From: Desulfosporosinus sp. Sb-LF
GTDB taxonomy: Bacteria > Bacillota > Desulfitobacteriia > Desulfitobacteriales > Desulfitobacteriaceae
DNA: 32,000 nucleotides
Direction: 5' to 3'
Assembly: GCF_004766055.1 (NCBI RefSeq)
Contig: NZ_SPQR01000013.1
Span: 53,829-85,828 of the forward strand
Below, piece after piece: positions 12,545 through 32,000 of this stretch. A program made the position numbers and the translations under genes. The notes beneath the pieces were generated by a model, which did not search any database, was not told the DNA's origin, and saw only the letters and a program-made list of their open reading frames with translations. Each line of letters starts with the position of its first letter. Position 1 is the first letter of the stretch.

Positions 12545-12549
12545 ACGGT

Positions 12550-12583
12550 GTAGTAGGGGCAATTCATTAATTGCCCCTACTAC
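12550..12583 (+). terminator. Very stable hairpin between clpC and radA, acting as an attenuator, a processing site or a weak terminator
   Basis: Perfect 15-bp stem GTAGTAGGGGCAATT / AATTGCCCCTACTAC with the 4-nt loop CATT. The only downstream U-tract is the short AATTTG. Confidence 0.5.
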
Positions 12584-12607
12584 AATTTGAGATGGAGCGT
12601 TGTATGT

Positions 12608-16698: not shown

Positions 16699-16724
16699 AG
16701 AGTCGAAACGAGGAGGAAAAAAGA

Positions 16725-17993
16725 ATGGATAACAGAGAATTATGGACAGCCCTGGGGATGGATTTAGAGAAACATGATGATTTCCTGGCCCCTATTCCAG
16801 AGGTTTATACGAACTTATTTTTAAATCGGCCTAATCGTCCGAAAGCGATGGGGTATTTTGACATGGTAGTTGGAGATGTGCATGGGATTCGCGTGCACGA
16901 ACTTTATGCCATGAAGGAAGCGGGAGCTAAGGTATTCTCGACCTTTTGCGTCTATGTTCCAGAGGAAATTGTCGTGGCAACAGGGAGTGCCAGCATTGGA
17001 TTATGTGCTGGGGCCCAGTATACGGTCTCTTCAGGAGAAAAAGTCTTGCCTCGCAACCTTTGTCCGCTGATTAAGTCCACTATGGGCTTTAAACTTGATC
17101 GAATTTGTCCGTATTTTCAAATCTCCGATTGGGTCATCGGGGAGACGACGTGTGACGGAAAGAAGAAAGCGTGGGAAATTCTCAATGAACACATCCCGAC
17201 CTATGTGATGGAGCTCCCGCAAAAGAAAGAAGCTAAAGACGCCCGCCTATGGGAAGAGGAAGTGCGTGAATTTGCCTCCTTTATTGAGCGCGAGACTAAG
17301 GTTGACTTAACTGCTGAGAATCTTGCCCAGGGTATCCAGACGATTAACAATAAACGTCAAGCACTTCAAAGGTTAGCCAATCTGAGAAAACATAACCCAG
17401 CCCCTATTCAAGGCTTAGATGTTCTGCTGATCAATCAACTCTCCTTCTTTGACGATCCAGTGCGCTTTACTGCTCAAGTCAATGCTCTGTGTGACGAACT
17501 AGATGAGCGAGTTAAGGCGGAGATTGGAGTGGCACCTGCTGATGCACCTAGGATTTTAGTGACGGGAACTCCGCAACCGCTTCCAGCTTGGAAACTTCAT
17601 GCTTTAATCGAACAAGCCGGGGCAGTCGTCGTTGGAGAGGAAACTTGCACGGGAGAGCGCTATTATAAGGACGTCACTGAGTCTGCGGAGAACGTATCGG
17701 ATATGCTCGCTAATATTGCTAAGCGCCCCTTAAAGGTGAATTGTGCTTGTTTTACGCCAAATCAAGGACGTATGGAAGACATTACTCGCATGGCCGAAAC
17801 TTTAAAAGCCGATGCCGTGATTGATTTTACCCTTCAGTTCTGTCAGCCCTATGGCGTGGAAAGCTATTTTGTGGGTAAGGAAATGGAAAAGAAAAAAATT
17901 CCTTTCTTGCGCTTAGAAAGCGATTTTTCTGAAGAGGATCAGGGGCAACTCTTGACCCGAATTGAAGCCTTAATCGAGATGATTCGCGCATGA
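16725..17993 (+). CDS. 2-hydroxyacyl-CoA dehydratase/BcrC/HgdB-family protein (single-subunit, double-cubane-cluster-type anaerobic reductase architecture)
   Basis: 422 aa carrying the family-typical Cys motifs (GLCAG, NLCPLIK, GETTCDGKKK, EETCTGERYY, QFCQPY). AGGAGG RBS. The gene is followed by an activase gene that overlaps its stop codon. Confidence 0.85.
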   Translation: MDNRELWTALGMDLEKHDDFLAPIPEVYTNLFLNRPNRPKAMGYFDMVVGDVHGIRVHELYAMKEAGAKVFSTFCVYVPEEIVVATGSASIGLCAGAQYTVSSGEKVLPRNLCPLIKSTMGFKLDRICPYFQISDWVIGETTCDGKKKAWEILNEHIPTYVMELPQKKEAKDARLWEEEVREFASFIERETKVDLTAENLAQGIQTINNKRQALQRLANLRKHNPAPIQGLDVLLINQLSFFDDPVRFTAQVNALCDELDERVKAEIGVAPADAPRILVTGTPQPLPAWKLHALIEQAGAVVVGEETCTGERYYKDVTESAENVSDMLANIAKRPLKVNCACFTPNQGRMEDITRMAETLKADAVIDFTLQFCQPYGVESYFVGKEMEKKKIPFLRLESDFSEEDQGQLLTRIEALIEMIRA

Positions 17994-18730
17994 GGCAAGC
18001 AGGGTTAGACCTTGGCTCGGTTAATACGAAGTTGGTTGTCTTAAATAATGGGGAACGAATTTACAGCCGAGTCATACCCTCCCGTTTCGATTCTGTCCAA
18101 GCGGGTATAACCTTATTAAAGACCTATGTCGAAGAACACGGAGAGAAACCTGACAAGCTCGTGGTCACAGGGTATGGACGAGTAAACTTTCCAGAGGGTC
18201 GGGTCATTACAGAAATTACTTGTCAAAGTAGAGGGTGTCACGCCTATTTTCCAGATAATGCGCACATTCTCGACTTAGGGGGGCAAGACGCTAAGGTAAT
18301 TAAGAAAAATGCCGAAGGAAGAGTCGTTCAGTTCATTATGAATGACAAGTGTGCCGCCGGAACGGGGCGTTTTTTGGATGTTATCCTTAAGGGATTGGAT
18401 CTAACGACGGAGGAGCTGGATTTAGCTGCAGAGGCTAAGCCAATGCCTATCAATTCGATGTGTACGGTTTTCGCTGAATCGGAAGTCATTACCCTGCTTG
18501 CCAAAGGGATTCCAAAACCCGAGGTGATTGCAGGTCTCTTCAAAAGCACGGCCAAACGTCTCGCTAATTTTGTCGAGTCTGTCGGACATCCCGATGATTT
18601 AATTTTCACGGGTGGAGGCGCACATTATGGTCTCCTAGTCCACTTTCTTGAACAGGAGTTAAAGGCGAAGATTATAATACCATCGGAGCCTGAGTTAACC
18701 GCTGCTTTAGGCGCAGCATCCCTTGCATAA
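17990..18730 (+). CDS. Acyl-CoA dehydratase activase-type ATPase (BcrA/BcrD/HgdC family)
   Basis: Contains the ASKHA-fold motifs GLDLGSVNTK, DLGGQDAKVI and NDKCAAGTGRFLD. ATGA overlap with the upstream gene. Confidence 0.88.
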   Translation: MRQAGLDLGSVNTKLVVLNNGERIYSRVIPSRFDSVQAGITLLKTYVEEHGEKPDKLVVTGYGRVNFPEGRVITEITCQSRGCHAYFPDNAHILDLGGQDAKVIKKNAEGRVVQFIMNDKCAAGTGRFLDVILKGLDLTTEELDLAAEAKPMPINSMCTVFAESEVITLLAKGIPKPEVIAGLFKSTAKRLANFVESVGHPDDLIFTGGGAHYGLLVHFLEQELKAKIIIPSEPELTAALGAASLA

Positions 18731-18792
18731 AAATAACGGTAGCACTTGCTTACCGATTTGATTATGATTACCGGTCGAAAGGCAGTCGGTAT

Positions 18793-18864
18793 TCCGGGAT
18801 GGTGGTGGTAGCACATGTGTTTCTGGAGCATATAGCCTGGGTTCGAATCCCAGTCCCGGAGCCA
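18793..18864 (+). tRNA. tRNA-Gln (anticodon CUG)
   Basis: Hand fold. The acceptor stem TCCGGGA/TCCCGGA has U1-A72, followed by G73 and an encoded CCA. The D stem is 3 bp (GTG/CAC). The anticodon loop is TTCTGGA. The T arm is CTGGG-TTCGAAT-CCCAG. Confidence 0.7.
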
Positions 18865-18872
18865 AAACACAA

Positions 18873-18947
18873 GGCCCCATGGTCAAGCGGCTAAGACGTC
18901 GCCTTCTCAAGGCGAAATCAGGGGTTCGATTCCCCTTGGGGATACCA
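18873..18947 (+). tRNA. tRNA-Glu (anticodon CUC)
   Basis: Hand fold. The D arm is GTC-AAGCGGCTAA-GAC. The anticodon arm is TCGCC-TTCTCAA-GGCGA. The T arm is AGGGG-TTCGATT-CCCCT. CCA is encoded. The acceptor stem GGCCCCA/TGGGGAT has a G1-U72 wobble and a G2-A71 mismatch. Confidence 0.75.
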
Positions 18948-18962
18948 AATGGTTTTAAAGAA

Positions 18963-19006
18963 TCATCAATTCATTGTTTGGTAGAAAACAAAGGTTGGTG
19001 ATTTTT
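18963..19006 (+). terminator. Rho-independent terminator after the tRNA pair
   Basis: Compound hairpin with the outer stem TCATCAA/TTGGTGA and the inner stem TTGTTT/AAACAA, followed by T5. Confidence 0.6.
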
Positions 19007-19031
19007 AGCAATAGAAAAGGAGGACAACGGA

Positions 19032-19370
19032 ATGGTTAATATTACAGAACTCGCAGCACAAAAGGTCAAAGAGGTGCTAAAAATGCAAAATAAAGAAGAT
19101 GCATTTCTTCGTCTCTATCTTGCAGGGTCTGGTTGTAGTAGACCGAATTTTGGCATGACTCTGGATGAATCCAAAATGGATGAAGATATTCTTGACGAAG
19201 AATTTGGTGTTAGAATACTCACGGATCAAAAACTTTCTATTTATTTAGAGGGAGCCATCATTGACTTTGTCGAGGCAAATGGCAGTGGGGGTTTCGAAAT
19301 ACGTACGGCAAAGATCTCTGATGGCGGAAGCTGTGGTGGAGGTTGTGGTGGCTGCAGCGGAAGCTGTTAA
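19032..19370 (+). CDS. HesB/IscA-family iron-sulfur cluster carrier-like protein with a Cys/Gly-rich C-terminal tail
   Basis: ITELAAQKVKEVL...LRLYLAGSGCSRPNFGMTLDE...ILTDQKLSIYLEGAIIDF is a typical IscA fold. The tail is GGSCGGGCGGCSGSC. AAGGAGG RBS. Confidence 0.8.
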   Translation: MVNITELAAQKVKEVLKMQNKEDAFLRLYLAGSGCSRPNFGMTLDESKMDEDILDEEFGVRILTDQKLSIYLEGAIIDFVEANGSGGFEIRTAKISDGGSCGGGCGGCSGSC

Positions 19371-19470
19371 TATGGCAGGAAAAAGAGAGCCCGATTTAAT
19401 TTGAGGCTCTCTTTGATTATTGGAATTTCTATTACTTAATGATAAAATCAGATAAGGAGGTGGCATAGAA

Positions 19471-19650
19471 ATGAGTGAAGAAGAAAGTAAGCTGTGGCAA
19501 TGCCAGATGCAAAGTTGTGGATATATTTATAATTCCGAAAAAGGCTGTAAAAAAAGTAAGATACCTAAGGATGTTCGCTTTGAGGAATTGCCTGATACTT
19601 GGAGATGTCCCTTATGTGGGGCTGGCAAAAAGATGTTTAAACCTGTGTAA
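19471..19650 (+). CDS. Rubredoxin-like protein, 59 aa. It is absent from the ORF track because it falls below the 60-aa cutoff.
   Basis: My own translation is MSEEESKLWQCQMQSCGYIYNSEKGCKKSKIPKDVRFEELPDTWRCPLCGAGKKMFKPV. It carries the rubredoxin hallmarks CGYIY, F..LP..W.CP.CGA.K..F. An AAGGAGGTG RBS lies 7-8 nt upstream. Confidence 0.8.
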   Translation: MSEEESKLWQCQMQSCGYIYNSEKGCKKSKIPKDVRFEELPDTWRCPLCGAGKKMFKPV

Positions 19651-19903
19651 GTTTCAAGGCATCCGTTTATTGGGTGCTGTCTTATGCTTATAACTACCTA
19701 TAACTGGAGGATAAATGTTATAAGAGAAGAACTCTTGGTTCTAACATCCATAAATTCCTTTTTATTACACTTTGAAACGTAAAAATTATTGTATTTTGTA
19801 AAAAATGATTTATTATGATGAGGACTTTTTAAAGTGCAATGAAGCCTTCAGAAGAGCATTACTTTTCTAAAGGCTTTTTTCATATGTTTGAAAGGAAGAT
19901 CTG

Positions 19904-20399
19904 ATGCATAATAAGACAGAAGAAACCAACACATTTTACCAACCAATCATCTCCGTTGCCAAAAAAATCATAGGGATTGAAAGTTTAGCAAGAGGGCTAG
20001 ATAAGCTAAAAGGAACAGTTATTTCTCCTCTTGAAAGTAATAAAACAGAGGATTTCGATGATTTGCTTGTGGAAGTTGTTAACAAACAAGAAAACCGAGT
20101 TAAGCATTGAATGTGCATATATACTTGATGAACAAGGCGTTCAGGTCAGTAACACAATATTTAGTAGTGCTGACAGAAAGTATCGTCAAATACTAATGTT
20201 TTATCCGGCCGTAAAAGGTGCAGATAACTCACTAAAGAAATATTATTATAAACTCATGAATTCTAGAGAGCGTAAGTATCTTTCTAACCCTTATGTGTCC
20301 CATGCGACCGGGAATGTTTGTATAACGGCGACTAGCGTTTTCATGCAAACTAATAATAAAAACTATATATTATGTGTAGATTTGATACATGAATTATAG
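19904..20399 (+). pseudogene. Decayed EAL-domain/YkuI-like c-di-GMP signalling gene. It has an internal deletion and a frameshift between two overlapping ORFs.
   Basis: ORF 19904..20110 starts an EAL domain (FYQPIISVAKKIIGIESLARG...GTVISPLE) but stops after about 45 residues of that domain. The overlapping +1 ORF 20031..20399 encodes a PAS/Cache-like sensor segment (GADNSLKKYYYKLMNSRERKYLSNPYVSHATGNVCITATSVF...ILCVDL). This is the domain order seen in YkuI-type proteins. Confidence 0.45.
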
Positions 20400-20605
20400 C
20401 CAAAAGGTAACAATAAAGGGCGATTAGCAAAGTCTCAATATGGACGTGAGATTCCATAATGTTAAAGTAAGCCTTATTAAAATGATGAATCAACTTGACA
20501 GCGAGCTCAACAAATTGATTTATTCCAATGCGTGGATAATGTTATGGAGCAGATCAGATGTGTCAGAATGAGAGCCGCTAATAGTTTTAAAATGGGGGTA
20601 ATAAT

Positions 20606-20827
20606 ATGGCAGAAATCAAATTCGAAATCAAAGAAACCATTGGTGTCCTTTCACAGTCAGCAAAAGGATGGTCTAAGGAGCTTAGCCTTGTAAGTTGGAA
20701 TGACAAAGAACCGAAGTATGATATTCGGGAATGGTCGCCCGATCATTCGAAGATGGGGAAGGGTGTAACATTAACCGCGGAAGAGTTGCAAAAGTTAAGG
20801 GATCTACTGAATGGAATTAATCTTTGA
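20606..20827 (+). CDS. YdbC-like PC4-fold ssDNA-binding protein (bacterial transcriptional coactivator p15 homologue)
   Basis: 73 aa. AEIKFEIKETIGVLSQSAKGWSKELSLVSWNDKEPKYDIREWSPDHSKMGKGVTLTAEE closely follows the YdbC family pattern. Confidence 0.8.
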   Translation: MAEIKFEIKETIGVLSQSAKGWSKELSLVSWNDKEPKYDIREWSPDHSKMGKGVTLTAEELQKLRDLLNGINL

Positions 20828-20840
20828 ATTGCAATTGTAA

Positions 20841-20876
20841 AAAATAGCACTTGCTTAAGCGACAAGTGCTATTTTA
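20841..20876 (+). terminator. Rho-independent terminator
   Basis: AAAATAGCACTTG / CAAGTGCTATTTT, a 13-bp stem with a 9-nt loop. Confidence 0.7.
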
Positions 20877-21021
20877 ATAGGCTGGTGCCGCCAATCAGCG
20901 AGGTGTTATATACCAAATAATCTAAATGGATTCACCCCCGCAAAGTTTCCCGTTTTATACAGCCTTTGAAAAATGGTCAGCGATATAAATAAATAATGGC
21001 GGTTAAGATGAAGACGGTAAA

Positions 21022-22371
21022 TTATACACCATATTTTTTCAGACGATAAAGTAGAGTCGGACGAGAAATGCCTAAATATTTAGCGACCTTTGTCTGGTTA
21101 TTATTATGCTTTTCCATAGCCTTGATAATAAGGTGTTTCTCCAACTCTTCTAATGAGAAACCACCCTCTGTAAGGCTTATTACAGGCGTTATAGTTTCCT
21201 CTGAGTTATTAAGTAATTCCTTGGGAAAATGGACTGGCTTAATTTCAGCGCCCTGACAAACAATGAGCGCTCTTTCAATCGCGTTCTGAAGCTCTCTTAT
21301 ATTACCAGGCCAGTTATAGCGAGTTAGAACTTTCATCGATTCTGAGGAAATTTTCTTGCTGCGGGAAGGATCAAATTTTTCAAGAAAATGATTAACCAGA
21401 AGGGGAATATCTTCTTTCCTTGATCTAAGCGGCGGCATAATGATATGCAGGACATTTAGTCGATAATAAAGGTCCTCCCTGAAGGCACCATTGGCAATGG
21501 CCGTGGTAAGATCTACATTCGTGGTGGCAATGACTCGGACATCGACATGGATGGTTTCAGTGCCTCCAACTCGTTCAAAACACCGTTCCTGTAGTACCCT
21601 CAGTAACTTCGCCTGCATACTGAGTGGCATTTCTCCGCTCTCATCCAGGAAAATCGTTCCCTTATCAGCAAGTTCAAATCGGCCCTTCTTTTTACTGGTT
21701 GCCCCTGTAAAGGCACCTTTTTCATGGCCAAATAACTCGCTTTCTAACAGTTGTTCTGGAAGGGCCGCACAGTTTACCGCTACAAAGGGCTTATCAGCTC
21801 GGTTGCTAGCTTTATGTATTTCCACAGCAGCGACTTCTTTGCCAGTTCCACTTTCTCCTGTTATCAGAACAGTTGCACTCGTTTTCGCAACCTGTTGAAC
21901 TAAGAGGGCAACCTCTTTCATAGCCTCACTCTGGCCAACAATTTTCCCGTACTTCTTACCTAATTCCTGACGTAGAAAATCAACCTGGTTTTCTAAATTA
22001 GAGAGATGTAAGGCTTGCTTAACATGTACCTTTAATTCCTCTAGCTTAAAAGGTTTCGTAATGTAATCCGTGGCCCCAATTTTCATGGCTTCGATTGCAG
22101 TGTCAATGGTGCCGTGGGCGGTAATCATAATGACAGGTATGCTGAAGTTTATTTTTTTAATCTCTTTTAAAACCTCAATACCATCAATGTCTGGCATCTT
22201 TAAATCCAATATTACCATCGAGGGTTCGTTTTTTTGGGCCAAGTCAATCCCTTGTAAACCTCTTGTGGCAGTGGCTACCTGATAGCCTTCATGACTTAGT
22301 GCCCTCTCGAGGGCCCAGCACATTCTTTCTTCATCGTCAATTACCAGAATTTTCGGTGTCAAGAAGATCAC
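21022..22371 (-). CDS. Sigma-54-dependent response regulator (NtrC/AtoC family: REC + AAA+ + Fis-type HTH)
   Basis: REC domain (ILVIDDEE...DLKMPDIDG). AAA+ domain with Walker A GESGTGKE and the sigma-54 contact loop GAFTGA. C-terminal HTH (QTKVAKYLGISRPTLLYRLKKYG). Confidence 0.93.
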   Translation of the reverse strand: MIFLTPKILVIDDEERMCWALERALSHEGYQVATATRGLQGIDLAQKNEPSMVILDLKMPDIDGIEVLKEIKKINFSIPVIMITAHGTIDTAIEAMKIGATDYITKPFKLEELKVHVKQALHLSNLENQVDFLRQELGKKYGKIVGQSEAMKEVALLVQQVAKTSATVLITGESGTGKEVAAVEIHKASNRADKPFVAVNCAALPEQLLESELFGHEKGAFTGATSKKKGRFELADKGTIFLDESGEMPLSMQAKLLRVLQERCFERVGGTETIHVDVRVIATTNVDLTTAIANGAFREDLYYRLNVLHIIMPPLRSRKEDIPLLVNHFLEKFDPSRSKKISSESMKVLTRYNWPGNIRELQNAIERALIVCQGAEIKPVHFPKELLNNSEETITPVISLTEGGFSLEELEKHLIIKAMEKHNNNQTKVAKYLGISRPTLLYRLKKYGV

Positions 22372-23914
22372 TCCTGTCGCAAAATTGTGGAATTACGGGA
22401 AGATTAATGATAAAGGTTGATCCCTTGCCCAGGCCACTATTCACATCGATCGTTCCACCATGCAGTTGAATACTTTGATAGGATATCGATAGTCCTAGAC
22501 CGGTGCCTGTTTTCTTGGTCGTGTAGAAGGGATCAAATATTCTTAGCGTTTCCTCTGCCGGGATGCCCTCTCCGGTATCTGAGAAACTGATCATAATCAT
22601 GTTGTCAGTTTCTTTTGTTATTATTTCTAATTTGCCACCTGAAGGCATAGCTTCGGCAGCATTTACAATGATATTGACAAAGACCTTTTTTAGCTTTTCG
22701 GTATCGGCTAAAATCTTAGAAAGGTTGCTGTCAAGCTGCAATTCAACACTTACCTTCTGCCCTCTTAACATCGCTGCTGAAAAAGAGAGGACTCCCGTGA
22801 TCAAATCGTTGACGGAACACTCCTTAATAGAAACTTTGGTAGGACGTCCAAAGTCCAGGAGTTCTTGAATTTCCATGTCCTGACGGTCAACCTGTTCGTC
22901 TATGGCCTTTGTAAATTCCTCGATACCACTTACTTGCGAGTATTCTTGCTTCATAAGTTCGACTAAGGTTTTGATAATACCGATAGGGTTACGCAATTCA
23001 TGAGCCACACCCGTTGCTAAACGACCAAGCGCAATAAGGTGTTCGGATTGCTTGAGTTGGTCTTCAAGCCGTTCCTTTTCGCCTAGGCCTACAGCCATCC
23101 TGTTGACGGCTTGGGCTACTTGCCCCAGTTCACCCGACATCTCAGGCAACAAGTGATGGATATCTTTCTCCATACTTTGTAATCCCAGCTTTAAGCGGTC
23201 GACCCCTGTGGTTAAATTTCTGATGATTAAAAGGGTACCAATCATAACTAAGGCTAGAACGCCAAGCATGAAATAACGTAGTAGTTTCCGAAAGTAATTA
23301 CTCTGGTAAAAGAAGGGATTAAGTCGCTCCTCAACCCACATAACGGCGACTACTTTCCCTTTTAGTACAACTGGAGAAGTGTACTCAACGACCTGATCAT
23401 CCCAAGAACCAGAAATCCGAAAGAGTGGTCCGTTATCCACCTCGGTCGCTATCAGGCCTGGTTTAGCATTGGCAAAGATTTCTCTCTCCCTCTGAGCTTC
23501 TTCTTCCTGCGAGAGGTTACGATAATTATGTAGGAAACCTAATACCGTAATCTTCTCTGTACGAGGAACATATAGACCGAAACGGATGCCTGGATTTGCA
23601 GGAATTTGGGGTTCTACGGCCTGGGTAAACTCATTAGTAAGGATGGCTAATGAGATATCTTGTGGCGGCCCTGACCAGCTTAACTCTAAATTTCTCGAAA
23701 ACTCATTGTTTGTACTTTTGACCAAGGCCTCCAGTCGCTGCTCTTTGTCCAAGAATACAACTTCATCCGTCCGTGAGGCAAAAAAGATGTCGTACATAAA
23801 AGCGACTAAAGGTACAAGCATGATTGCTGCTATGATAATCACGATCTGATTCGTAAGGCTATAGCGTTTAAAAAAAGAAAATATTTTTTTATTTCTAATA
23901 TTGATCATCTCCAT
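22337..23914 (-). CDS. Sensor histidine kinase (two TM helices around an extracytoplasmic sensor domain of about 170 aa, then HAMP, HisKA and HATPase_c)
   Basis: H-box GVAHELRNPI. N-box NIIVNAAEAM. G-boxes DTGEGI and GTGLGLS. Hydrophobic segments lie at about residues 20-45 and 205-230. The 3' end overlaps the regulator gene. Confidence 0.9.
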   Translation of the reverse strand: MEMINIRNKKIFSFFKRYSLTNQIVIIIAAIMLVPLVAFMYDIFFASRTDEVVFLDKEQRLEALVKSTNNEFSRNLELSWSGPPQDISLAILTNEFTQAVEPQIPANPGIRFGLYVPRTEKITVLGFLHNYRNLSQEEEAQREREIFANAKPGLIATEVDNGPLFRISGSWDDQVVEYTSPVVLKGKVVAVMWVEERLNPFFYQSNYFRKLLRYFMLGVLALVMIGTLLIIRNLTTGVDRLKLGLQSMEKDIHHLLPEMSGELGQVAQAVNRMAVGLGEKERLEDQLKQSEHLIALGRLATGVAHELRNPIGIIKTLVELMKQEYSQVSGIEEFTKAIDEQVDRQDMEIQELLDFGRPTKVSIKECSVNDLITGVLSFSAAMLRGQKVSVELQLDSNLSKILADTEKLKKVFVNIIVNAAEAMPSGGKLEIITKETDNMIMISFSDTGEGIPAEETLRIFDPFYTTKKTGTGLGLSISYQSIQLHGGTIDVNSGLGKGSTFIINLPVIPQFCDRSDLLDTENSGN

Positions 23915-24054
23915 ATTATGTGAGATTAAAAAATTGAATCATATAATACATAATAGTAATGGCTTTGATGCAATGATAAAAATGCCCAAATTCAAACTAA
24001 AAACGGAGTATAGAGACGATAAACCGTTCAAATAGAATTATCTGATCTTTGGGC

Positions 24055-24078
24055 GAAGTGTATCATTTGATACACTTC
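24055..24078. promoter_or_regulatory. Perfect palindrome, a candidate enhancer (UAS) for the adjacent sigma-54 activator
   Basis: GAAGTGTATCA-TT-TGATACACTTC has 11-bp arms and a TGT-N10-ACA core. Its centre is about 61 bp upstream of the -24 GG. Confidence 0.45.
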
Positions 24079-24125
24079 TTTTTATTTTAATGAATAAAAG
24101 GTTGAATCTAATGGGTTTCTAGGGT

Positions 24126-24142
24126 TGGTACGCTATTTGCTA
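24126..24142 (+). promoter_or_regulatory. Candidate sigma-54 (-24/-12) promoter
   Basis: TGGTAC-GCTAT-TTGCT compared with the consensus TGGCAC-N5-TTGCW. GG and GC are correctly spaced, with one mismatch. It is oriented toward the + strand operon and lies divergent to the sigma-54 two-component genes. Confidence 0.6.
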
Positions 24143-24308
24143 TATAAAGAATTATATCACAAGGATGATAGGAGGGAAGATAGTAATTTAGTATGGAGAG
24201 GCATTCATCCTGGACGTTGCTAAGCACAACACAACCGTAGGTAGAGTCCCCTAGGGTAAGTCTAGATAATAGGGGCGTAAGAATTTTTGAAGGGGGTGAT
24301 GATATACA

Positions 24309-24518
24309 TTGAATTTCAACGTGAATTGCGAACGATGTAGAGTTCCCTTCAAAAAAGGAGACGTTTACAATTACAGAGGCAATAATCTATGCGAGGATTG
24401 CTATGTTCTTCTGTACCTGTTCGACAGGGAAGCTCCCGATGTCTATTTGCCAGATAAAGTACAGCTGCGTCCCAAAATTCCGGTGGCTGTAGGGCGTCGA
24501 TTATCAACTAAAGGGTAA
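24309..24518 (+). CDS. Small zinc-ribbon-like protein (69 aa, CxxC-N19-CxxC), function unknown
   Basis: CERC...CEDC. TTG start about 11 nt after GGGGGTG. It is the first ORF downstream of the sigma-54 promoter. The start codon is uncertain, and GTG 24321 is an alternative. Confidence 0.5.
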   Translation: MNFNVNCERCRVPFKKGDVYNYRGNNLCEDCYVLLYLFDREAPDVYLPDKVQLRPKIPVAVGRRLSTKG

Positions 24519-24641
24519 GTTGATAAGACAAGAGCTAACTAATGGTCTATTGTAAGTTCCGGATTAACGGTCGTGAAAGAAATCCCTTTCATTAGCTTAA
24601 GTAATTGATGCAACATGTTTAACCGTAGGAGGTCAAACACA

Positions 24642-25568
24642 ATGATTGAAAATTTATTTACTCATGCCAGTTCATTATTTATAGCAACCAATGTTGCTGT
24701 AGCGCAAGCAGCTGGTACACCTGGAGTACCATGGTGGGTGTGGCCTCTTGCCTTACTAGTGACGACCTTTCTGATTGGGATAGTCGCTTCGCTAGCCGGA
24801 GTTGGCGGTAGTGTACTGTATGTGCCAATTGTCAGTAGCTTTTTCCCGTTTAACTTCGATTTCATTCGTGGCTCTGGCTTGTTTGTAGCACTTGCATGTT
24901 CGTTGTCTGCAGCGCCCAAACTATTAAAACTAAATTTAGCAAGCCTGCGCCTGGTTATTCCCTTAGCTTTAATTGCTTCATCCTCAAGTATTGTAGGCGC
25001 ATATTTAGGACTTTCCTTACCGCAAAGTATTCTTAAGATTTTATTAGGCGTTTTAATCACAGGTATTGCAGTTCTTTTCATTTTCTCCAAAAACAGTGAG
25101 ATCCCCGTAATCGGAACTCCTGACCCCTTAACCCGATATTTAAATATCGGAGGTGCATATTTCGAGCCTTCTAATGGTAAAAATGTTACTTGGTCTGTAT
25201 GGAGACTCCCAATTGGACTGGTACTTTTCTGTTGTATTGGAATTATCGCTGGAATGTTCGGAATCGGTGCAGGCTGGGCTAACGTGCCAGTACTCAACAT
25301 GCTTCTGGGTGCACCCCTTAAAATTGCTGTTGGCACTAGTATGTCATTGTTGGCCATCACAGACACTTCAGCGGCATGGATTTATTTGAACCAAGGTGCG
25401 GTGCTTCCTATCATAACGATTCCATCTGTTTTAGGAATTATGGTGGGCTCGCGGGTTGGTGTTATTCTATTAAAAACTGCTAAGCCGAAATCTATCCGGT
25501 ATATTGTTATTCTCATGTTATTGTTCGCTGGATTGAAGTCTTTATTAGCAGGATTAGGATGGGGGTAA
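24642..25568 (+). CDS. TauE/SafE (TSUP) family anion permease
   Basis: Shows the two-fold repeat typical of TSUP proteins (GVGGSVLYVPI... and GIGAGWANVPVLN...). TAGGAGG lies 9 nt upstream of the ATG at 24642. A hydrophilic insert of about 35 aa lies between the two halves. Confidence 0.88.
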   Translation: MIENLFTHASSLFIATNVAVAQAAGTPGVPWWVWPLALLVTTFLIGIVASLAGVGGSVLYVPIVSSFFPFNFDFIRGSGLFVALACSLSAAPKLLKLNLASLRLVIPLALIASSSSIVGAYLGLSLPQSILKILLGVLITGIAVLFIFSKNSEIPVIGTPDPLTRYLNIGGAYFEPSNGKNVTWSVWRLPIGLVLFCCIGIIAGMFGIGAGWANVPVLNMLLGAPLKIAVGTSMSLLAITDTSAAWIYLNQGAVLPIITIPSVLGIMVGSRVGVILLKTAKPKSIRYIVILMLLFAGLKSLLAGLGWG

Positions 25569-25574
25569 AAACAT

Positions 25575-26063
25575 ATGAGTAGTCAAACATTTGTTCAAAA
25601 TAATCGTGTAAAAAGTGTCGTAATCAGTCAACCTAAGGCTATTGTTTCCACGAACGTGGAAGTAAGCCCGGAACAGAATAGATATGCTAGTATTTTGTTA
25701 GTTTGCTCATGGGCTGGAATCATTGTAATGCTGATAACGTTCCTTCTGTATATGGGTGGCCTTTTTAATCCTCTTGTTAAACCTTCGGACATGCCGCTTT
25801 ATTGGGGATTGAATGTGCATCAGTACTTGCAGGTTACACATGCACCTAGTGGTTGGGACTGGATGAGATTGATTAATCATGCTGATTATTTAAATTTAGT
25901 TGGGTTAGCTTTTTTGGGAATTGTCTCAGTTCTTGGGTATATTTCACTCTTTATAGATTACTCGCGTAAGAAAGATTTTCCGTTCCTCTTAATGGTTGCT
26001 TTGGAGATTTTAGTAATTACTTTAGCTGCTTCCGGTATTTTTCGCATCTCTGGGGGAGCGTGA
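25575..26063 (+). CDS. DUF1634-like small membrane protein, the usual partner of TauE/SafE permeases
   Basis: 162 aa with three to four TM segments. It starts 6 nt after the permease stop codon. The family call rests on architecture and adjacency. Confidence 0.65.
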   Translation: MSSQTFVQNNRVKSVVISQPKAIVSTNVEVSPEQNRYASILLVCSWAGIIVMLITFLLYMGGLFNPLVKPSDMPLYWGLNVHQYLQVTHAPSGWDWMRLINHADYLNLVGLAFLGIVSVLGYISLFIDYSRKKDFPFLLMVALEILVITLAASGIFRISGGA

Positions 26064-26135
26064 TTTTGACAATCGCTAAAGTGTAGGCACAGATAATTTT
26101 AGACCAAGAAAGTTTGGTTATATACTTTATTAGTC

Positions 26136-26190
26136 AAAACAGAATAAGCCCCGAAGAGATGCATTTGCTCTTCGGGGCTTATTCTGTTTT
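26136..26190. terminator. Bidirectional rho-independent terminator with an unusually long stem
   Basis: 23-bp perfect stem AAAACAGAATAAGCCCCGAAGAG / CTCTTCGGGGCTTATTCTGTTTT with a 9-nt loop. Confidence 0.85.
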
Positions 26191-26399
26191 GGCCATTTTA
26201 ACGACGCTAAACTTAATAAAATTGTAGTGCGTTGTTAGCGAGAAACTATATAAATCACAGAGTTGTAAAATAATTGGTTATAATCTCTTGAGTTGACTAT
26301 GGACCCAACAAGGGAAATATTGGTTAGATAACTATAGACATAATACTTTCCTCAGTGTTAATCTTTATTTGTATAGTTGTATTAAAAGGAGGTGCGGTT

Positions 26400-26498
26400 A
26401 TGGCTGTGGGTTTTATTGCTATCGTTGTCATGGTCGCCGTTTTTGGAATTGTTTTTGTTGATTACAAACAGCAGCATGGAAGAGGCGGATGTAACTAA
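26400..26498 (+). CDS. Small hydrophobic peptide, 32 aa (MAVGFIAIVVMVAVFGIVFVDYKQQHGRGGCN)
   Basis: My own translation. An AAAGGAGGTG RBS lies 5-8 nt upstream of the ATG. The peptide has a single TM helix and a polar tail. It is absent from the ORF track because of its size. Confidence 0.4.
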   Translation: MAVGFIAIVVMVAVFGIVFVDYKQQHGRGGCN

Positions 26499-26723
26499 CT
26501 CTTAGGGGATGTCTAAACATAATTTCAAATATAGTTTAACTCCGATAAGGAGCAGAAACATAACCAACCCGATTGTGAATTCGTTATTCTTTATTCTTAT
26601 AACGCACGTACGAATTACTTGGAATATTTTCAGGTCACATACCCAATAAACAATGCCATTCTCGGGCAGGGAGCGGTTTGTGGGATCTCTACCTGCCTGG
26701 AGATGCTGAGAGGAATATTTAAT

Positions 26724-26771
26724 GTGTTGGCGAGAAAATAAAAATTTTCTCGTCAACACATTTCGTTTTTT
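26724..26771 (+). terminator. Rho-independent terminator (+ strand orientation)
   Basis: 16-bp stem GTGTTGGCGAGAAAAT / ATTTTCTCGTCAACAC containing one G-U pair, with the loop AAAA. A T6 run follows after a short spacer. Confidence 0.7.
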
Positions 26772-26795
26772 ATATTGAAGGGTGGGTTGAGGGTA

Positions 26796-27149
26796 TTAAT
26801 AATTATGTGTACCTATAACTACTGGCTTGCCGAATTTCCCTTCCAGTTTCGTTTTAATACCGTTGAGGTCAATGGGACAGGCGGAAGTGTTTCTAGCCCT
26901 AACTACACAGGTACCGATATGAATAGCATCTATATCTTGTAACAAATAATCAGCCATTTCCATAACTAATCCAACTTTAGGCATAACTAAACCAGGGCAA
27001 TCGCCACAACCACTGAGACCCGCAATCTGAACGGTGTCATACTTTGCAAATTCACCTTCTTTAAGCGCAGCAGCTTTAAAACACTTCAGGCAAGCAATAC
27101 AACTGACATCACGAATTTTAGTGCAGGATACAATTAGAATATTAGCCAT
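26796..27149 (-). CDS. CGGC-domain protein (putative metal-binding, uncharacterised family)
   Basis: 117 aa. VSCTKIRDVSCIACLKCFKA...LSGCGDCPG...HIGTC matches the CGGC-domain pattern, with GCGDCPG in place of GCGGCPG. AAGGGGG RBS. Confidence 0.8.
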   Translation of the reverse strand: MANILIVSCTKIRDVSCIACLKCFKAAALKEGEFAKYDTVQIAGLSGCGDCPGLVMPKVGLVMEMADYLLQDIDAIHIGTCVVRARNTSACPIDLNGIKTKLEGKFGKPVVIGTHNY

Positions 27150-27655
27150 TAAACAAAGCCCCCTTTATTTAAGTAACTATATTCCACAAGGACATAAGTA
27201 ATCCTGTATTTACTTAGGATATATTCAGGGGATTTAGTAACTTATTTAGGCAAGTCCTGGCAGTTGGTTTTGAATTTGTAACCGTGCAATATAAAAATTT
27301 TATGGAACAAGACCGCTGCAATAGCATTCTGTTAAAAATGAAGCAGAAAAGCTGATGAACGGCTTGTGACGTGAATATTTTGAAGACAATACTGGGCGAT
27401 TTTTAGTAGAAATCAGCCATAATGGAGATACTGTTGAAGTAACAGTTGAACTGAATTAAACAACGACACATGTCAATCTTAAAGTGGTTGGCATGTGTCA
27501 TTTAGTCTCTAAAACAAATAATTTTTAAATTAAATTAAAATAAGTATGCCTTGAAGTCTAAATAGTAGTAGAATTATCGGTGTTGATTACGGAGTTTAGT
27601 GGTAGCAGATTATACAATATGCACAAGTACTATGATGAATTGTTGGAGTGATAAA

Positions 27656-28558
27656 ATGATTAACTTTAAAGAAATAGAACTAAACGACAAGAATTGGATG
27701 GAACCCCTAATTATCAAAGCTGATATGAGTGGTTGTCATCAAAACTTCACAAACATATTTGCATGGTCGGAAATCTATCAATATCGTGTTGCAAGGGTAA
27801 ATGGTTACCTTGTGGTCAAAGGGGTTATCGATGATTCCCACTATTATTTTTATCCTGCGGGTTCGGGTGATATTAAGACTGTATTTGAGGTCATGCAACA
27901 TGACGCTGCTTCTTGCGGTCATGAATTTGTATTAGCCGGAGTATCCCCAGAGAATATTGCCGTGCTGAATGGCGTGTTTCCTGATCACTTCGAGTATAAA
28001 GTGATGAGAGAAAGCTTTGATTATGTTTATCTTCTGGATAAGCTAGTCACGCTGGCAGGGAATAAACTTCACTCTAAACGCAATCATATCAACAGATTTA
28101 ATAAGGAAAATAGTAACTGGAGCTTTGAAAAGATCTCATTAGAAAACTTAGCTGAATGCTGGGAGATGAACCTGCAATGGTGTAAAATCAATTCCGGTAA
28201 TGAGGATGAAATTGCCAAAGAAAGCTGCGCAGTACGTCGTTGTTTTAACAACTTTACCGCTCTTGGCTTAGAGGGTGGACTTATACGTGTAGAGGGCAAG
28301 GTTATTGCCTACACGATGGGAGAAAAATTGAATTCAGATACCTATGTCGTTCATATTGAAAAAGCATTTGGAGAGATAGGGGGTGCCTATCAAATAATCA
28401 ACCGTGAATTTGCTGCTTTTATCCAAGAGAGCTATCCCCAACTGATTTATGTGAACCGTGAGGAGGACATGGGCTTTGAGGGATTACGAAAGGCTAAGTT
28501 ATCCTACCATCCGGATAAAATGGAGGAAAAATTCTTTGCTACCTATATAGAATTTTAA
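27656..28558 (+). CDS. DUF2156 protein, a stand-alone homologue of the C-terminal aminoacyl-transferase domain of phosphatidylglycerol lysyltransferase (MprF)
   Basis: NIFAWSEIYQYRVARVNGYLVVKG...LHSKRNHINRF...YVVHIEKAF...GAYQIINREFA...YVNREEDMGFEGLRKAKLSYHP. GGAGTG lies upstream of the ATG at 27656. Confidence 0.85.
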   Translation: MINFKEIELNDKNWMEPLIIKADMSGCHQNFTNIFAWSEIYQYRVARVNGYLVVKGVIDDSHYYFYPAGSGDIKTVFEVMQHDAASCGHEFVLAGVSPENIAVLNGVFPDHFEYKVMRESFDYVYLLDKLVTLAGNKLHSKRNHINRFNKENSNWSFEKISLENLAECWEMNLQWCKINSGNEDEIAKESCAVRRCFNNFTALGLEGGLIRVEGKVIAYTMGEKLNSDTYVVHIEKAFGEIGGAYQIINREFAAFIQESYPQLIYVNREEDMGFEGLRKAKLSYHPDKMEEKFFATYIEF

Positions 28559-28598
28559 TATAAGTCATTTTTTAAAAAAGCAGATGGAGATTGAATTT

Positions 28599-29489
28599 AT
28601 GATGAACGTAGTCAGACTAGCCCAAGAAGGTGAGACAGTTTGTCAAAAAGAACTTTGGAAACGTTGCTTTGGGGATCCTGACAGTTATATCGATTTCTAC
28701 TATGCCAATCGGTACAAAGAGGACGAAACTGCAGTATTGCTTCATGGTGGAGAGATTCTGGCCATGCTTACGAGAATACCTGTTGAAACGATGACACCGG
28801 ATAAACGAAGCTTTAACACAGTCATGCTCTACGCTATCGCAACACACCCAGAATACCAGCGAAGAGGTTTTGCTACTCAATTAATAGATTTTAGCAACGA
28901 ATATCTTAGGTCAGGGAAGAAGGAACTTTCTGTTCTAGTCCCAGCCAATAGGCAACTTGCTGATTTTTATCGAAAACAAGGATACCAGGATGGATTCTAC
29001 CTTAGGGAGTCCTTACTTAGTCGCGAGGGGGTAGATAGATTACCAATCCATAAATCGTGCCATTGCACGATCACATCGGTAACTCCCGAAGAGTATAATC
29101 GCAGACGGAATAAACAACTGAGTGGTAGACTCTTTATTTCGTATGCTGATGGAGATATTGCCTATCAGAAAAAACTGTCACAAAAGTCTGGAGCGGACAT
29201 CTATGCTGTAGACATTGAAGAAATAAAGGGCTGTTTAGCAGTTGAAAGACTGCCTTCTGACACGGCGCTCATCAAGGAAATCTTACTCCCAGAGGATTTA
29301 ATGAATGTGGCTATCCAACAGATAGTAAAACAACTGCCTGCCAAGGAATATGTACTGCGCACACCTCCCCATTTAGCCGAGCATTTAGGGGGTTCCGTTC
29401 GCCCTTTTGGAATGATTAGGGCACATAGAGAAATCGATTGGGTGATAACACCAGAAGATTTAGGATATCTGGGATTTGCATTCGATTAG
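28599..29489 (+). CDS. GNAT-family N-acetyltransferase with an additional C-terminal domain
   Basis: Acetyl-CoA binding segment LYAIATHPEYQRRGFATQLI. 296-301 aa depending on which of three clustered ATGs (28584, 28599, 28602) is used. Confidence 0.8.
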   Translation: MMNVVRLAQEGETVCQKELWKRCFGDPDSYIDFYYANRYKEDETAVLLHGGEILAMLTRIPVETMTPDKRSFNTVMLYAIATHPEYQRRGFATQLIDFSNEYLRSGKKELSVLVPANRQLADFYRKQGYQDGFYLRESLLSREGVDRLPIHKSCHCTITSVTPEEYNRRRNKQLSGRLFISYADGDIAYQKKLSQKSGADIYAVDIEEIKGCLAVERLPSDTALIKEILLPEDLMNVAIQQIVKQLPAKEYVLRTPPHLAEHLGGSVRPFGMIRAHREIDWVITPEDLGYLGFAFD

Positions 29490-29540
29490 TAATACTCGCT
29501 CAAAGCCTAAGTCAGCTAGAGGGGAGATCGGTAAGATTTT

Positions 29541-29565
29541 GGAGAGACGCGTGCTCTCCTTTTTG
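29541..29565 (+). terminator. Rho-independent terminator after the GNAT gene
   Basis: GGAGAG-acgcgtg-CTCTCC followed by T5. Confidence 0.7.
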
Positions 29566-29795
29566 ATGTATAAATCTAAGATATCACCGATTTATTCAGA
29601 GAGGCCAACGGACGGATAGAGAAGGGTCGCTGTCCACAGTTATCTAGGAGTATGGCATTGTCCATGGAACGACATAATCTATGACAAAGAATGACGAGAG
29701 GGGCGGGACAAACTCCATATTGATGAGATGGAAAATCCACTTATGGGAAGGCCTTTGGGAAGACATACTTGCCTGAATAGATACACTAGGTATTT

Positions 29796-29828
29796 AGGAA
29801 CTGCTTAACCGGTAGTTCCTTTCTTCTT
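29796..29828 (+). terminator. Terminator-like hairpin in the intergenic region
   Basis: AGGAACT...AGTTCCT stem, extended by G-U pairs, followed by TTCTTCTT. Confidence 0.4.
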
Positions 29829-29867
29829 AAAAAACGTGGCCGTCCACATACTGTCGGAATGAATTAA

Positions 29868-29876
29868 TGCTATAAT
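29868..29876 (+). promoter_or_regulatory. Extended -10 promoter element upstream of the TerB-domain gene
   Basis: TGcTATAAT, about 58 nt upstream of the ATG at 29934. There is no convincing -35. Confidence 0.35.
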
Positions 29877-29933
29877 TATTAGACAGGGCTGAACACGGGC
29901 GGAACTCTACGAATAGAAGGGCGAAGGACTGGA

Positions 29934-31655
29934 ATGATCGATAAACTATTGGACACGTTGGAAAGGTTTAATCTCAAACGGGCGTCTGAACTTATTAATA
30001 ACAAAACATCTCACCCGCACCCCGCCGGAGATTTATTCTATGATACTGAAACCCTGATTCTGCCAGAATACCAACATGTCAAAACTCCGCTGCCAGTTAA
30101 AGAATTTCTGGAAGATATTAAAGGAATGACACTCGGATGTGCGGATTTTCCAAGAGATAATCTTAAGTTTTGCCAGGATTCCTTGGCCTATTCTAGGCAA
30201 CAGAAGACGCAGGGAAAACCAGTAAAGCCTGTTTTTATTAGGATTCACGAGATCTTATTTGAAGCCCTCAATAACGCCCAAAAGGAATGGTATTTCTACT
30301 GGAGAAAAGAAGTTTTGAGGGGTAACTATTTAAGTACAGATTCAGGCTGCGTTTTCATTTTTGTTTACGAATTATTAAATTACACATTTAACGAAAATGC
30401 AGCGTTTAATTTAAGTATGTTGGATCGGGTTTGCCTAAATTATCAGGCTAGGCATTGTAATTTAGGTCGTTTTCTACCACGCTGGATTTCCGATTTTTGC
30501 TATGAGTTAGGGGAATATGACCTTGAAAAGAAGTGGACTTCCAGGATACGAAACTGTGAATTCTCTGATTATGAGATCCTCAAACAATTTGAGAACAAAC
30601 TGGAGACAGTTTCTATTACCTTTTGGAAGCGATTTATCAGATCTAATAAAACGAATTTCTTCAAAACAAATAGAAATTTCGTTTATAAAGTCTTCAAGTC
30701 TTCAGTTGCGCTCCTGGAAAATGAGTATCAAGCTCAAGGTAAAAATCTCATAGATGCATGGATATTGCTTAATGAGAAGGATAGTTTTGAACGTCGATTA
30801 TTCCCCAATGCGTTGATAGGCCGTAAGGTTAAAAATAAACCAGAGGCTTTACGAATTCCAACGCTAAAAATGAGAGAAGACCTTACGGCCTTATTTCGTT
30901 TGGCAGAAAACATTGCCAGAGTAAAAGCAGGGGAAAAACGCCAATTAAACGTCGATGAAACACTCTTCCCAGAGGGATTTAAAGATACGCTCTTAGAGTT
31001 GTTTCAGGATAAAGCGCAACCTTCATTAATGTTTGGAAGTCGCTTTGTAAAAGCCCAAAATAAAGGATCGATGGGCTTGGGTAGCTCGATTCCAGAGCCT
31101 CCGGAAACTTTGGAACAAGGTGTGGCGACAATTCCTCTTATTGAGTTTGATTTAGAGCGAATTGATACGTTGGATAAGGAAAGCAAGGAGTTATTAGAGA
31201 TTTTTGCTCTCCGATATGATGAAGAAGAGGAAGTTGATCATCACGATAAATTAGATTTGGAACGAGGGAATAAATTCCTCGAATTGATGAGCATCTCGGA
31301 GAAGGTTAAGAAGGCGAAGGAATCGGAGTCAAGGCGGAAAGAAAAAGAAAAACCCATAAATAGTTTGGCTTCGGTGTTCAAGGATGGAAATTCCGAGGAT
31401 GTTGAGCCCTTCGTGGCCGAATTAACTGAGTTGGAGCGCGATTTTCTCCTTGGGTTCAAAGATCTAATCAGGGTCAAGCAAGAGGGGATAAACTACCTCA
31501 AAACTCGTGGGACCATGATGGGGGTCTTTATCAATACCCTTAATGAGAAATCGTTAGATCATTTAGGGGACAACCTCCTAGAACAAGAGGGAGACGTTAT
31601 AGTGTTCAATGAAGATTTCAAGCAAGTACTTCTTAAACTTGCTGAGGAGGTATAG
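29934..31655 (+). CDS. TerB-N / TerB-C domain protein (SngA-like first component of a Shango-type defence operon)
   Basis: 573 aa. The N-terminal region (EWYFYWRKEVLRGNYLSTDSGCVFIFVYELLN) fits TerB-N. An acidic/lysine-rich linker follows. The C-terminus (FVAELTELERDFL...GVFINTLNEKSLDHLGDNLLEQEGDVIVFNEDF) fits TerB-C. Confidence 0.82.
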   Translation: MIDKLLDTLERFNLKRASELINNKTSHPHPAGDLFYDTETLILPEYQHVKTPLPVKEFLEDIKGMTLGCADFPRDNLKFCQDSLAYSRQQKTQGKPVKPVFIRIHEILFEALNNAQKEWYFYWRKEVLRGNYLSTDSGCVFIFVYELLNYTFNENAAFNLSMLDRVCLNYQARHCNLGRFLPRWISDFCYELGEYDLEKKWTSRIRNCEFSDYEILKQFENKLETVSITFWKRFIRSNKTNFFKTNRNFVYKVFKSSVALLENEYQAQGKNLIDAWILLNEKDSFERRLFPNALIGRKVKNKPEALRIPTLKMREDLTALFRLAENIARVKAGEKRQLNVDETLFPEGFKDTLLELFQDKAQPSLMFGSRFVKAQNKGSMGLGSSIPEPPETLEQGVATIPLIEFDLERIDTLDKESKELLEIFALRYDEEEEVDHHDKLDLERGNKFLELMSISEKVKKAKESESRRKEKEKPINSLASVFKDGNSEDVEPFVAELTELERDFLLGFKDLIRVKQEGINYLKTRGTMMGVFINTLNEKSLDHLGDNLLEQEGDVIVFNEDFKQVLLKLAEEV

Positions 31656-31659
31656 GTAC

Positions 31660-32000
31660 GTGGTAGGAAAACTTCGTAAAAAGGATTCCACAGCAATTCT
31701 AAACTCGCTTTATGGGGGAGTCGTGCCCAATCGGGGTCTGGAACATATTATGGTCGGTCGTAAAGAAGAGGCTACTCAGATTCTGAACGATTTAGAGACC
31801 GTGAAGGACGGAGCCTCAATTATTAAATTTATTATTGGACCCTTTGGCTCGGGTAAGACTTTTCTGCAAGCCCTAATCCAACAAGTTGCTTTCAGCGAAA
31901 AGTTCGTGGTCGGCAAGGTTGATTTTGATGCTAATCGCCGACTTTACGGCTCTGAGGGTAAGTCAGTGGCTACTTATTCGGAAATGATGAAAAATCTAGC
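31660..32000 (+). CDS. DUF2791 / BREX-type ATP-binding protein (SngB-like), 3'-truncated by the window edge
   Basis: My own translation from the GTG at 31660, which lies 9 nt after GAGGAGG and 4 nt after the upstream stop. It reads VVGKLRKKDSTAILNSLYGGVVPNRGLEHIMVGRKEE...FIIGPFGSGKTFLQALIQ, including a Walker A motif. The frame stays open to nt 32000. Confidence 0.85.
   Translation, partial: MVGKLRKKDSTAILNSLYGGVVPNRGLEHIMVGRKEEATQILNDLETVKDGASIIKFIIGPFGSGKTFLQALIQQVAFSEKFVVGKVDFDANRRLYGSEGKSVATYSEMMKNL

Follow-up and report, generated by a model that had tools for sequence, protein, structure and literature searches.

We analyzed a 32,000-nucleotide (nt) stretch of the genome of Desulfosporosinus sp. 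Sb-LF (hereafter, the window), which carries toward its 3' end the first genes of an operon encoding the anti-phage system Shango (SngABC). The 3' edge of the window falls inside sngB, and the remainder of the operon was read from L001, a 24-kb Logan assembly contig that was found by a lookup of contigs encoding the exact SngA protein. Across the 11,393 positions that it shares with the window, L001 has 0 mismatches (100% identity), and it extends 9.6 kb past the window edge. The identical SngA protein is also present in NCBI, on a 99-kb contig of Desulfosporosinus sp. Sb-LF. The three genes lie contiguously on the plus strand, in the order sngA-sngB-sngC (positions are those of the window unless L001 is named):

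29923..29928, plus strand, Shine-Dalgarno sequence GAAGGA of sngA, 5 nt before the ATG
29934..31655, plus strand, sngA, a protein of 573 amino acids with TerB_N and TerB_C domains, ATG start (list of open reading frames and raw sequence)
31644..31650, plus strand, Shine-Dalgarno sequence GAGGAGG of sngB, within the last codons of sngA
31660..32000, plus strand, first 113 codons of sngB, GTG start, frame open to the window edge
L001 11053-12378, plus strand, full sngB, 441 amino acids, ending at window-equivalent 32985
L001 12867-15026 (window-equivalent 33474-35633), plus strand, sngC, 719 amino acids, outside the window

The Sb-LF locus is a complete chromosomal three-gene Shango operon, because full-length SngB and SngC with intact catalytic motifs are both encoded on L001. 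The Shango systems of Escherichia coli and Pseudomonas aeruginosa PA14 consist of these three proteins too, likewise encoded in this order on one strand, and the three-gene architecture recurs in five other loci that we compared. Between the sngA stop codon TAG (31653-31655) and the GTG of sngB at 31660 there are 4 nt (GTAC), so that a reading of the window made earlier from the sequence alone (the sequence-only reading), which had placed a P-loop gene 4 nt after sngA with GAGGAGG inside the end of the upstream gene, agrees with the raw sequence. The sngB-sngC spacer is 488 nt long, owing to an inserted gene fragment; spacers in the five other Shango loci measure 3-102 nt. An alternative ATG further upstream (L001 11002; the region concerned is 31609-31660 of the window) gives a SngB of 458 amino acids that overlaps the end of sngA, and this start was chosen by one gene call in D. 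fructosivorans (L003 9655). The GTG at 31660 is the better start, because GAGGAGG lies 9 nt upstream of it and because the protein read from it aligns with the SngB model from position 5 onward.

For each of the three Sb-LF proteins, the Shango model is the best match in PADLOC, covered over almost its whole length in the case of SngB and SngC, as the sequence-only reading had anticipated in assigning the pair of genes then visible to Shango. The 113 residues of SngB inside the window, which that reading had placed in the DUF2791/BREX family, match Pfam BrxC_BrxD (formerly DUF2791) with an E-value of 2.3e-37 and contain the motif GPFGSGKT; in PADLOC they match SngB at 2.1e-39 versus 1.1e-16 for BrxD. 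The full protein matches BrxC_BrxD (PF10923) at 3.1e-144, with the Walker A (GPFGSGKT) and Walker B (VVNFDE) motifs intact. The helicase that had been expected beyond nt 32000 is SngC: its best PADLOC match is the SngC model (1.8e-202, 673 bits), with residues 8-708 aligned to model positions 5-718 of 720. Pfam assigns DEAD and Helicase_C domains to it, and motifs I, II, III and VI are present (ASGKT, DEIH, SAT and QRMGRSGRR, respectively). In a sequence search, the closest relatives of SngC with solved structures were Lhr (5v9x, 7lhl) and the Ski2-like Brr2/ASCC3, and its RecA1/RecA2 core most resembles Lhr and Ski2-like DExH helicases (E-values 2.5e-28 and 1.3e-27). The C-terminal ~340 residues of SngC have no Pfam match; the SngC of a relative shows a faint match to WHD_Lhr. 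By the same kind of search, neither SngA nor SngB has a relative with a solved structure. The helicases Lhr and Lhr-core (5v9x, 7lhl) differ from SngC in that the latter is linked in an operon to SngA and SngB.

BrxD and BrxHI form the accessory pair of types 2 and 6 of the bacteriophage exclusion system (BREX), and both are homologous to the Sb-LF proteins. An orphan BREX fragment would account for the BrxD match of full SngB (7.4e-51), the BrxHI match of SngC (5e-129), and the 58.7 bits that the NCBIfam BREX_BrxD equivalog model gives to the N-terminal 113 residues of SngB. The last score is, however, far under the cut-off of 350, and the Shango models score far higher than those of BREX, at 544 versus 172 bits for SngB (7.7e-164 for the SngB model) and 673 versus 430 bits for SngC; the ATPase thus groups with Shango and not with BREX. 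In addition, the gene for the TerB-N/TerB-C protein is translationally coupled to the ATPase gene, and Pfam and PADLOC found none of PglX, PglXI, PglZ, PglY, BrxA, BrxB and BrxC among the genes called within 9 kb upstream and 6 kb downstream. On these model scores and the absence of BREX core genes nearby, membership in BREX was rejected, and the orphan-fragment explanation is effectively refuted. Unlike BREX, reportedly described by Goldfarb et al. in 2015, the Sb-LF locus has a TerB-N/TerB-C protein in place of the methyltransferase PglX, the phosphatase PglZ and BrxA/B/C; therefore, discrimination of self from non-self cannot proceed by BREX-type methylation.

SngA is the most divergent Sb-LF component in comparison with the E. 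coli and PA14 systems, and differs from theirs in being without the canonical TerB core (PF05099) and without a membrane segment. The claim that this protein carries both TerB-N and TerB-C holds: Pfam detects TerB_N at residues 77-262 (E-value 8.9e-16; 58.7 bits, cut-off 25), and TerB_C follows at 402-564 (6e-12; 46.4 bits, cut-off 26.3). Its only PADLOC match is the SngA model (1.3e-37), which aligns over positions 108-526 of 528. PF05099 was not found by Pfam, which returned only TerB_N and TerB_C at E <= 0.01, and the gene calls of the neighbourhood include no terZ/A/C/D/E; a tellurite-resistance (ter) cluster or a canonical TerB protein was rejected on these two grounds. The protein is soluble, with no transmembrane segment (maximum 19-residue Kyte-Doolittle hydropathy, 0.85). 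An AlphaFold2 model, built on an alignment with 25 homologues and having a mean predicted local distance difference test score (pLDDT) of 72, shows a largely helical body, modelled with confidence, that includes a beta hairpin (residues 40-360), a disordered stretch (360-405), a helix (407-428), a second disordered, acidic and lysine-rich stretch (428-487), and a compact helix-strand domain with pLDDT of about 90 (488-573). The sequence-only reading had taken the acidic/lysine-rich stretch for the linker between TerB-N and TerB-C; this turned out to be wrong, since the charged stretch (~428-487) lies inside the TerB_C envelope and the real separator is 360-405. Foldseek found no significant match to the model in the Protein Data Bank; the C-terminal domain has a weak likeness to winged helix-turn-helix domains (E-values 0.8-4). 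Distant SngA homologues (31-38% identity) of Anaerobacillus, Bacillus, Halobacillus and Pallidibacillus are fused to a TM2 membrane domain (PF05154), and their genes still lie in plain sngABC operons (e.g., L036 2920-4839). Because these Bacillaceae relatives carry the fused TM2, SngA is anchored in the membrane in some lineages, in contrast to the soluble protein of Desulfosporosinus.

The region upstream of sngA contains the following signals:

29541..29559, plus strand, terminator-like hairpin GGAGAG...CTCTCC followed by TTTTT, ending the upstream acetyltransferase gene
29796..29820, plus strand, second terminator-like hairpin, with a 10-bp stem and a T-rich tail, shortly before the sngA promoter
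29861..29879, plus strand, promoter core AATTAATGCTATAATTATT, invariant in five Shango loci

An extended -10 element, TGcTATAAT, lies at 29868-29876 inside AATTAATGCTATAATTATT with no convincing -35 element, which matches the extended -10 promoter that the sequence-only reading had assigned to the operon. A scan for two-hexamer sigma-70 promoters called none upstream of sngA, and missed this one because there is no good -35; the call is based on the exact TGnTATAAT and on conservation across loci. The five loci that share the invariant AATTAATGCTATAATTATT have unrelated sequence further upstream and share no more than 57-80% identity in SngA. Much of the sngA leader of ~55 nt is invariant in the five loci as well, the Shine-Dalgarno region GAAGGGCGAAGGACTGGAATG is nearly invariant across them, and the 95 bp that precede sngA show 82-89% conservation in the other loci, the sequence beyond being unrelated. 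This pattern of conservation argues that the operon has its own promoter. Terminator-like sites number 3 in the interval 29400-30000, versus 0.2 expected from shuffles, and the hairpin at 29796..29820 is predicted to shield the operon from read-through. Between the acetyltransferase terminator and the conserved promoter lie ~290 bp specific to Sb-LF (29560-29850), which end with the plus-strand hairpin at 29796-29820 and a minus-strand hairpin at 29849-29834; from 29560 to about 29845 there is no match in the other Shango loci and none in Rfam. When the operon and the sequence on either side were compared with Rfam (E <= 1), the only match was a chance miRNA (21.8 bits versus a gathering score of 90), and the 445-bp spacer upstream of the operon contains neither a riboswitch nor any other known RNA.

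To survey the site of the operon, genomes were scanned with a BcrAD-like gene of the neighbourhood, which yielded 25 Desulfosporosinus loci (Sb-LF not among them), onto which marker proteins were mapped. The conserved frame of these loci is clpC-radA ... carD-yacL(PIN)-ispD-ispF-gltX. In D. metallidurans, D. fructosivorans and the metagenomic contig L037, sngABC lies between a rubredoxin/Fe-S-assembly gene and a gene for a protein of 130 amino acids, which is followed by carD. In Desulfosporosinus sp. I2 and two metagenome-assembled genomes, the 130-amino-acid gene follows the rubredoxin gene within ~100-150 bp, only a shared terminator hairpin lies between the two, and there is no Shango. In D. 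nitroreducens and others, the segment is filled by metabolic or signalling genes, with no defence matches. Depending on the species, this variable segment contains aldehyde:ferredoxin oxidoreductase, a molybdo-oxidoreductase, citrate synthase, a GGDEF-HD protein, or Shango. Overall, Shango is absent from the site upstream of carD in at least four relatives, and the suspicion that the operon is an indel was correct: it is an indel at a generic variable site and not part of a defence island. The defence-island idea was rejected, as PADLOC found nothing specific among the Sb-LF neighbours and the segment genes of the other species are metabolic or signalling genes. The Sb-LF locus, which lies in a metabolic variable region of a Gram-positive sulfate reducer and not in a defence hotspot, is set apart by this from the E. 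coli and PA14 systems.

The proteins of Sb-LF and D. metallidurans are 80% (SngA), 95% (SngB) and 91% (SngC) identical, and the values for SngB and SngC are similar to those of flanking core proteins. The ratios of nonsynonymous to synonymous substitution rates (dN/dS), calculated pairwise among four loci, were:

sngA, dN/dS 0.18-0.22
sngB, dN/dS 0.04-0.05
sngC, dN/dS 0.10-0.12

All three genes are under purifying selection, and the pattern of identity and dN/dS fits vertical descent with losses and continued function. The same observations might be expected of a vertically inherited module for DNA or RNA processing or for stress response, as was first proposed by comparative genomics for clusters of TerB-N/TerB-C, DUF2791 and helicase genes, that is not primarily a defence system. 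Four Desulfosporosinus-type loci occupy one chromosomal site in a core block (clpC-radA ... carD-yacL-ispD), the identity of SngB and SngC (84-95%) is similar to that of the flanking core proteins, purifying selection is strong, neighbouring defence and mobile-element genes were not found, and Lhr-type helicases work in DNA repair. Conversely, some congeners carry the operon and others do not, at a site that is conserved in other respects, which is typical of accessory genes, and homologous three-gene systems lowered phage plating in two hosts. We consider a primarily non-defence function improbable. Nor does base composition point to a foreign origin, which was rejected because the GC content of the whole operon (42.6%) equals the window mean (42.3%). 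The sequence-only reading had the operon as more AT-rich than the core genes (42 to 48% GC); this applies weakly to sngA (39.5%) and does not apply to sngB (43.9%), sngC (43.8%) or the operon as a whole.

The region between sngB and sngC is the feature in which Sb-LF departs from the other Shango loci, including those of E. coli and PA14. The elements concerned are:

L001 12384-12866 (window-equivalent 32991-33473), the insert between sngB and sngC
L001 12402-12839 (window-equivalent 33009-33446), plus strand, open reading frame of the 3' fragment of an ABC-2 permease gene, 145 amino acids, or 151 when read from 12384
L001 15174-15641 (window-equivalent 35781-36248), minus strand, 3' fragment of an EcsB-type ABC permease, residues 248-403 of 406
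Left copy of the sngB-sngC spacer in Sb-LF, TTTAATGGCGGAGTATTCCTGGAT
Right copy of the spacer in Sb-LF, CAAATGGGAGGAGTATTTACGGAT
Uninterrupted spacer of D. metallidurans, CAAATGGAGGAGTATTCGTGGAT

The insert consists of the 3' ~60% of an ABC-2 permease gene (~470 bp). In Pfam its reading frame covers only positions 90-204 of the 205 of PF13346, and in more than 50 homologues, nearly all of 228-230 amino acids, the homology begins at about residue 88. Full-length permeases of this kind in D. youngiae and in the metagenomic contig L007 are encoded inside a GntR-ATPase-permease(-ATPase-EcsB) operon. The Sb-LF frame is not a full-length permease of ~229 amino acids with six helices; it retains about four hydrophobic helices and is without an ABC ATPase partner. 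A nucleotide alignment indicates that the insert includes the native 3' flank of the permease gene, up to ACAACAAATG, and that two diverged copies of the sngB-sngC spacer bracket it. The insert is a captured gene fragment with a target duplication of ~21 nt and microhomology at the right junction; the simplest account of its origin, which we infer, is a template-switch or break-repair event that copied a nearby gene. The EcsB fragment sits just after sngC, and because EcsB and the ABC-2 permease share one operon in D. youngiae, both relics probably derive from a single ABC operon that once lay next to Shango and has since been broken up.

Capture of the fragment affected the start of sngC. In relatives, GGAGGAG precedes the canonical GTG of sngC; Sb-LF has ACG in place of this GTG. 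The Sb-LF reading frame opens instead at an ATG 15 nt upstream, framed by one extra G (L001 12867-12887, window-equivalent 33474-33494); this ATG is the only in-frame start, and no Shine-Dalgarno sequence precedes it. The ATG of the fragment at 12402 now has the left copy of the ribosome-binding site (GGCGGAG) in front of it. SngC may be poorly made in Sb-LF because the replacement ATG has no upstream Shine-Dalgarno sequence, and its expression may depend on coupling to the fragment frame, which ends 27 nt upstream of the ATG. Taken further, these changes could mean that the Sb-LF system is in early decay, i.e., that sngC is uncoupled from its ribosome-binding site, the helicase under-expressed, and the system weakened or inactive. 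The contrast between the uninterrupted spacer of D. metallidurans, GGAGGAGTATTCGTG, and the right-hand copy of Sb-LF, GGGAGGAGTATTTACG, is consistent with such decay, as are the sole start lacking a Shine-Dalgarno sequence and the EcsB fragment, a second relic of local rearrangement. Yet sngC is full length with every motif intact, its dN/dS against relatives (0.117) is not above that of uninterrupted loci (0.10-0.12), the extra G that frames the ATG looks compensatory, and the short distance from the end of the fragment frame makes translational coupling possible. We therefore regard early decay as unlikely, although it is the most serious competitor of an intact operon.

The fragment was also considered as a regular fourth component of Shango, and was rejected in this role because it is absent from five of five other Shango loci and because the gene is truncated. 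A narrower version, in which the four-helix frame of 145 amino acids is expressed from the duplicated ribosome-binding site of sngC and was co-opted in Sb-LF as a membrane-anchoring fourth subunit, would parallel the TM2 domain fused to the SngA of Bacillaceae; if true, it would offer a handle on the membrane-surveillance role proposed for TerB-type defence proteins. We consider this version very improbable. The captured fragment probably has no role in defence, yet has shifted the start of sngC, and the capture and the start-codon shift in one strain are local accidents rather than a new kind of system.

Shango has been shown experimentally to act against phages in E. coli and P. aeruginosa (Millman et al. 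2022; Johnson et al. 2023, PMC10250203), with a modest effect on plates (10-100-fold) and a strong effect in liquid culture over a wide range of phage doses. Our literature search on SngA, SngB and SngC found no mechanistic study. A preprint of 2025 still calls the mechanism of Shango unclear, and the sensor, loader and effector roles that follow are therefore proposals. SngA, a soluble protein in which TerB-N and TerB-C are accompanied by two disordered linkers and a small winged-helix-like C-terminal subdomain, would act as the sensor or adaptor that recognizes a cue of infection. It would engage SngB, a P-loop ATPase of the BrxD type serving as an ATP-driven switch or loader, which in turn would activate SngC, the Lhr/Ski2-like DExH helicase of superfamily 2, or load it onto phage nucleic acid. 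Lhr itself moves 3'-to-5' along single-stranded DNA and unwinds RNA:DNA hybrids. The helicase would be the likely effector because the operon, as its parts list of sngABC indicates, encodes no nuclease, toxin or methyltransferase; for the same reason, direct interference, in which SngC dismantles intermediates of phage replication or recombination, seems likelier than abortive infection by cell killing. SngB-SngC and BrxD-BrxHI of BREX are one and the same module, which in Shango is joined to a TerB-N/C protein where BREX has PglX/PglZ, and the homology of the two pairs suggests that the ATPase and helicase form a portable engine whose targeting partners can be exchanged. Bunzi (BnzA) and Dionysus (DinB) resemble Shango in having a Ter-family domain protein as the presumed sensor, and membrane surveillance has been proposed for them; these systems pair TerB with membrane or pore-forming effectors, whereas in Sb-LF a soluble SngA is paired with an ATPase and a helicase.

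Taken together, a complete Shango operon with its own conserved extended -10 promoter, working through SngA, SngB and SngC in the manner proposed, is in our view a highly probable explanation of the locus. Several points weigh against it. Protection from phages is shown only for the Shango systems of E. coli and P. aeruginosa, and the account of the mechanism goes beyond what the 2025 preprint considers clear. The resemblance of the SngA C-terminus to winged helices is not significant at the Foldseek E-values given above. The locus lies outside any defence island, among metabolic or regulatory neighbours, and the replacement of GTG by ACG in sngC, with a substitute ATG that has no Shine-Dalgarno sequence, is a reason why SngC may be poorly made.

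The Sb-LF operon is a further member of an already described system and leaves knowledge of the system type unchanged. Its value is that of a clean, complete example in an anaerobic Firmicute, in which occupied and empty sites among congeners, an invariant promoter and 5' leader, and selection estimates for each gene can be used in working out the mechanism. It also sets a constraint: models of discrimination and action must fit a sensor-like protein, a BrxD-type ATPase and a Lhr-like helicase only. The captured gene fragment is a small natural experiment on operon integrity and start-codon repair.

It should be noted that the window itself lies in the conserved Firmicute block mcsB-clpC-radA ... 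carD-yacL(PIN)-ispD-ispF-gltX (8828-13996 and 16357-19647 of the window, and the downstream parts of contigs L002 and L003), which in Desulfosporosinus is interrupted by genes for DsrE, an HGD-D/BcrAD-type activator and rubredoxin, together with the variable segment. In Sb-LF, the genes after sngC differ from those of the other Shango loci, and the 130-amino-acid gene and carD were not seen there within L001. About 10 kb (~19700-29500) separate the conserved Fe-S-assembly/rubredoxin genes from Shango, a stretch whose content is specific to Sb-LF and that is absent from D. fructosivorans and L037. It encodes, on the minus strand, a sigma-54 response regulator and a histidine kinase, as well as TauE, a protein of 162 amino acids, a CGGC protein, a protein with an LPG_synthase_C domain, and a GNAT acetyltransferase.

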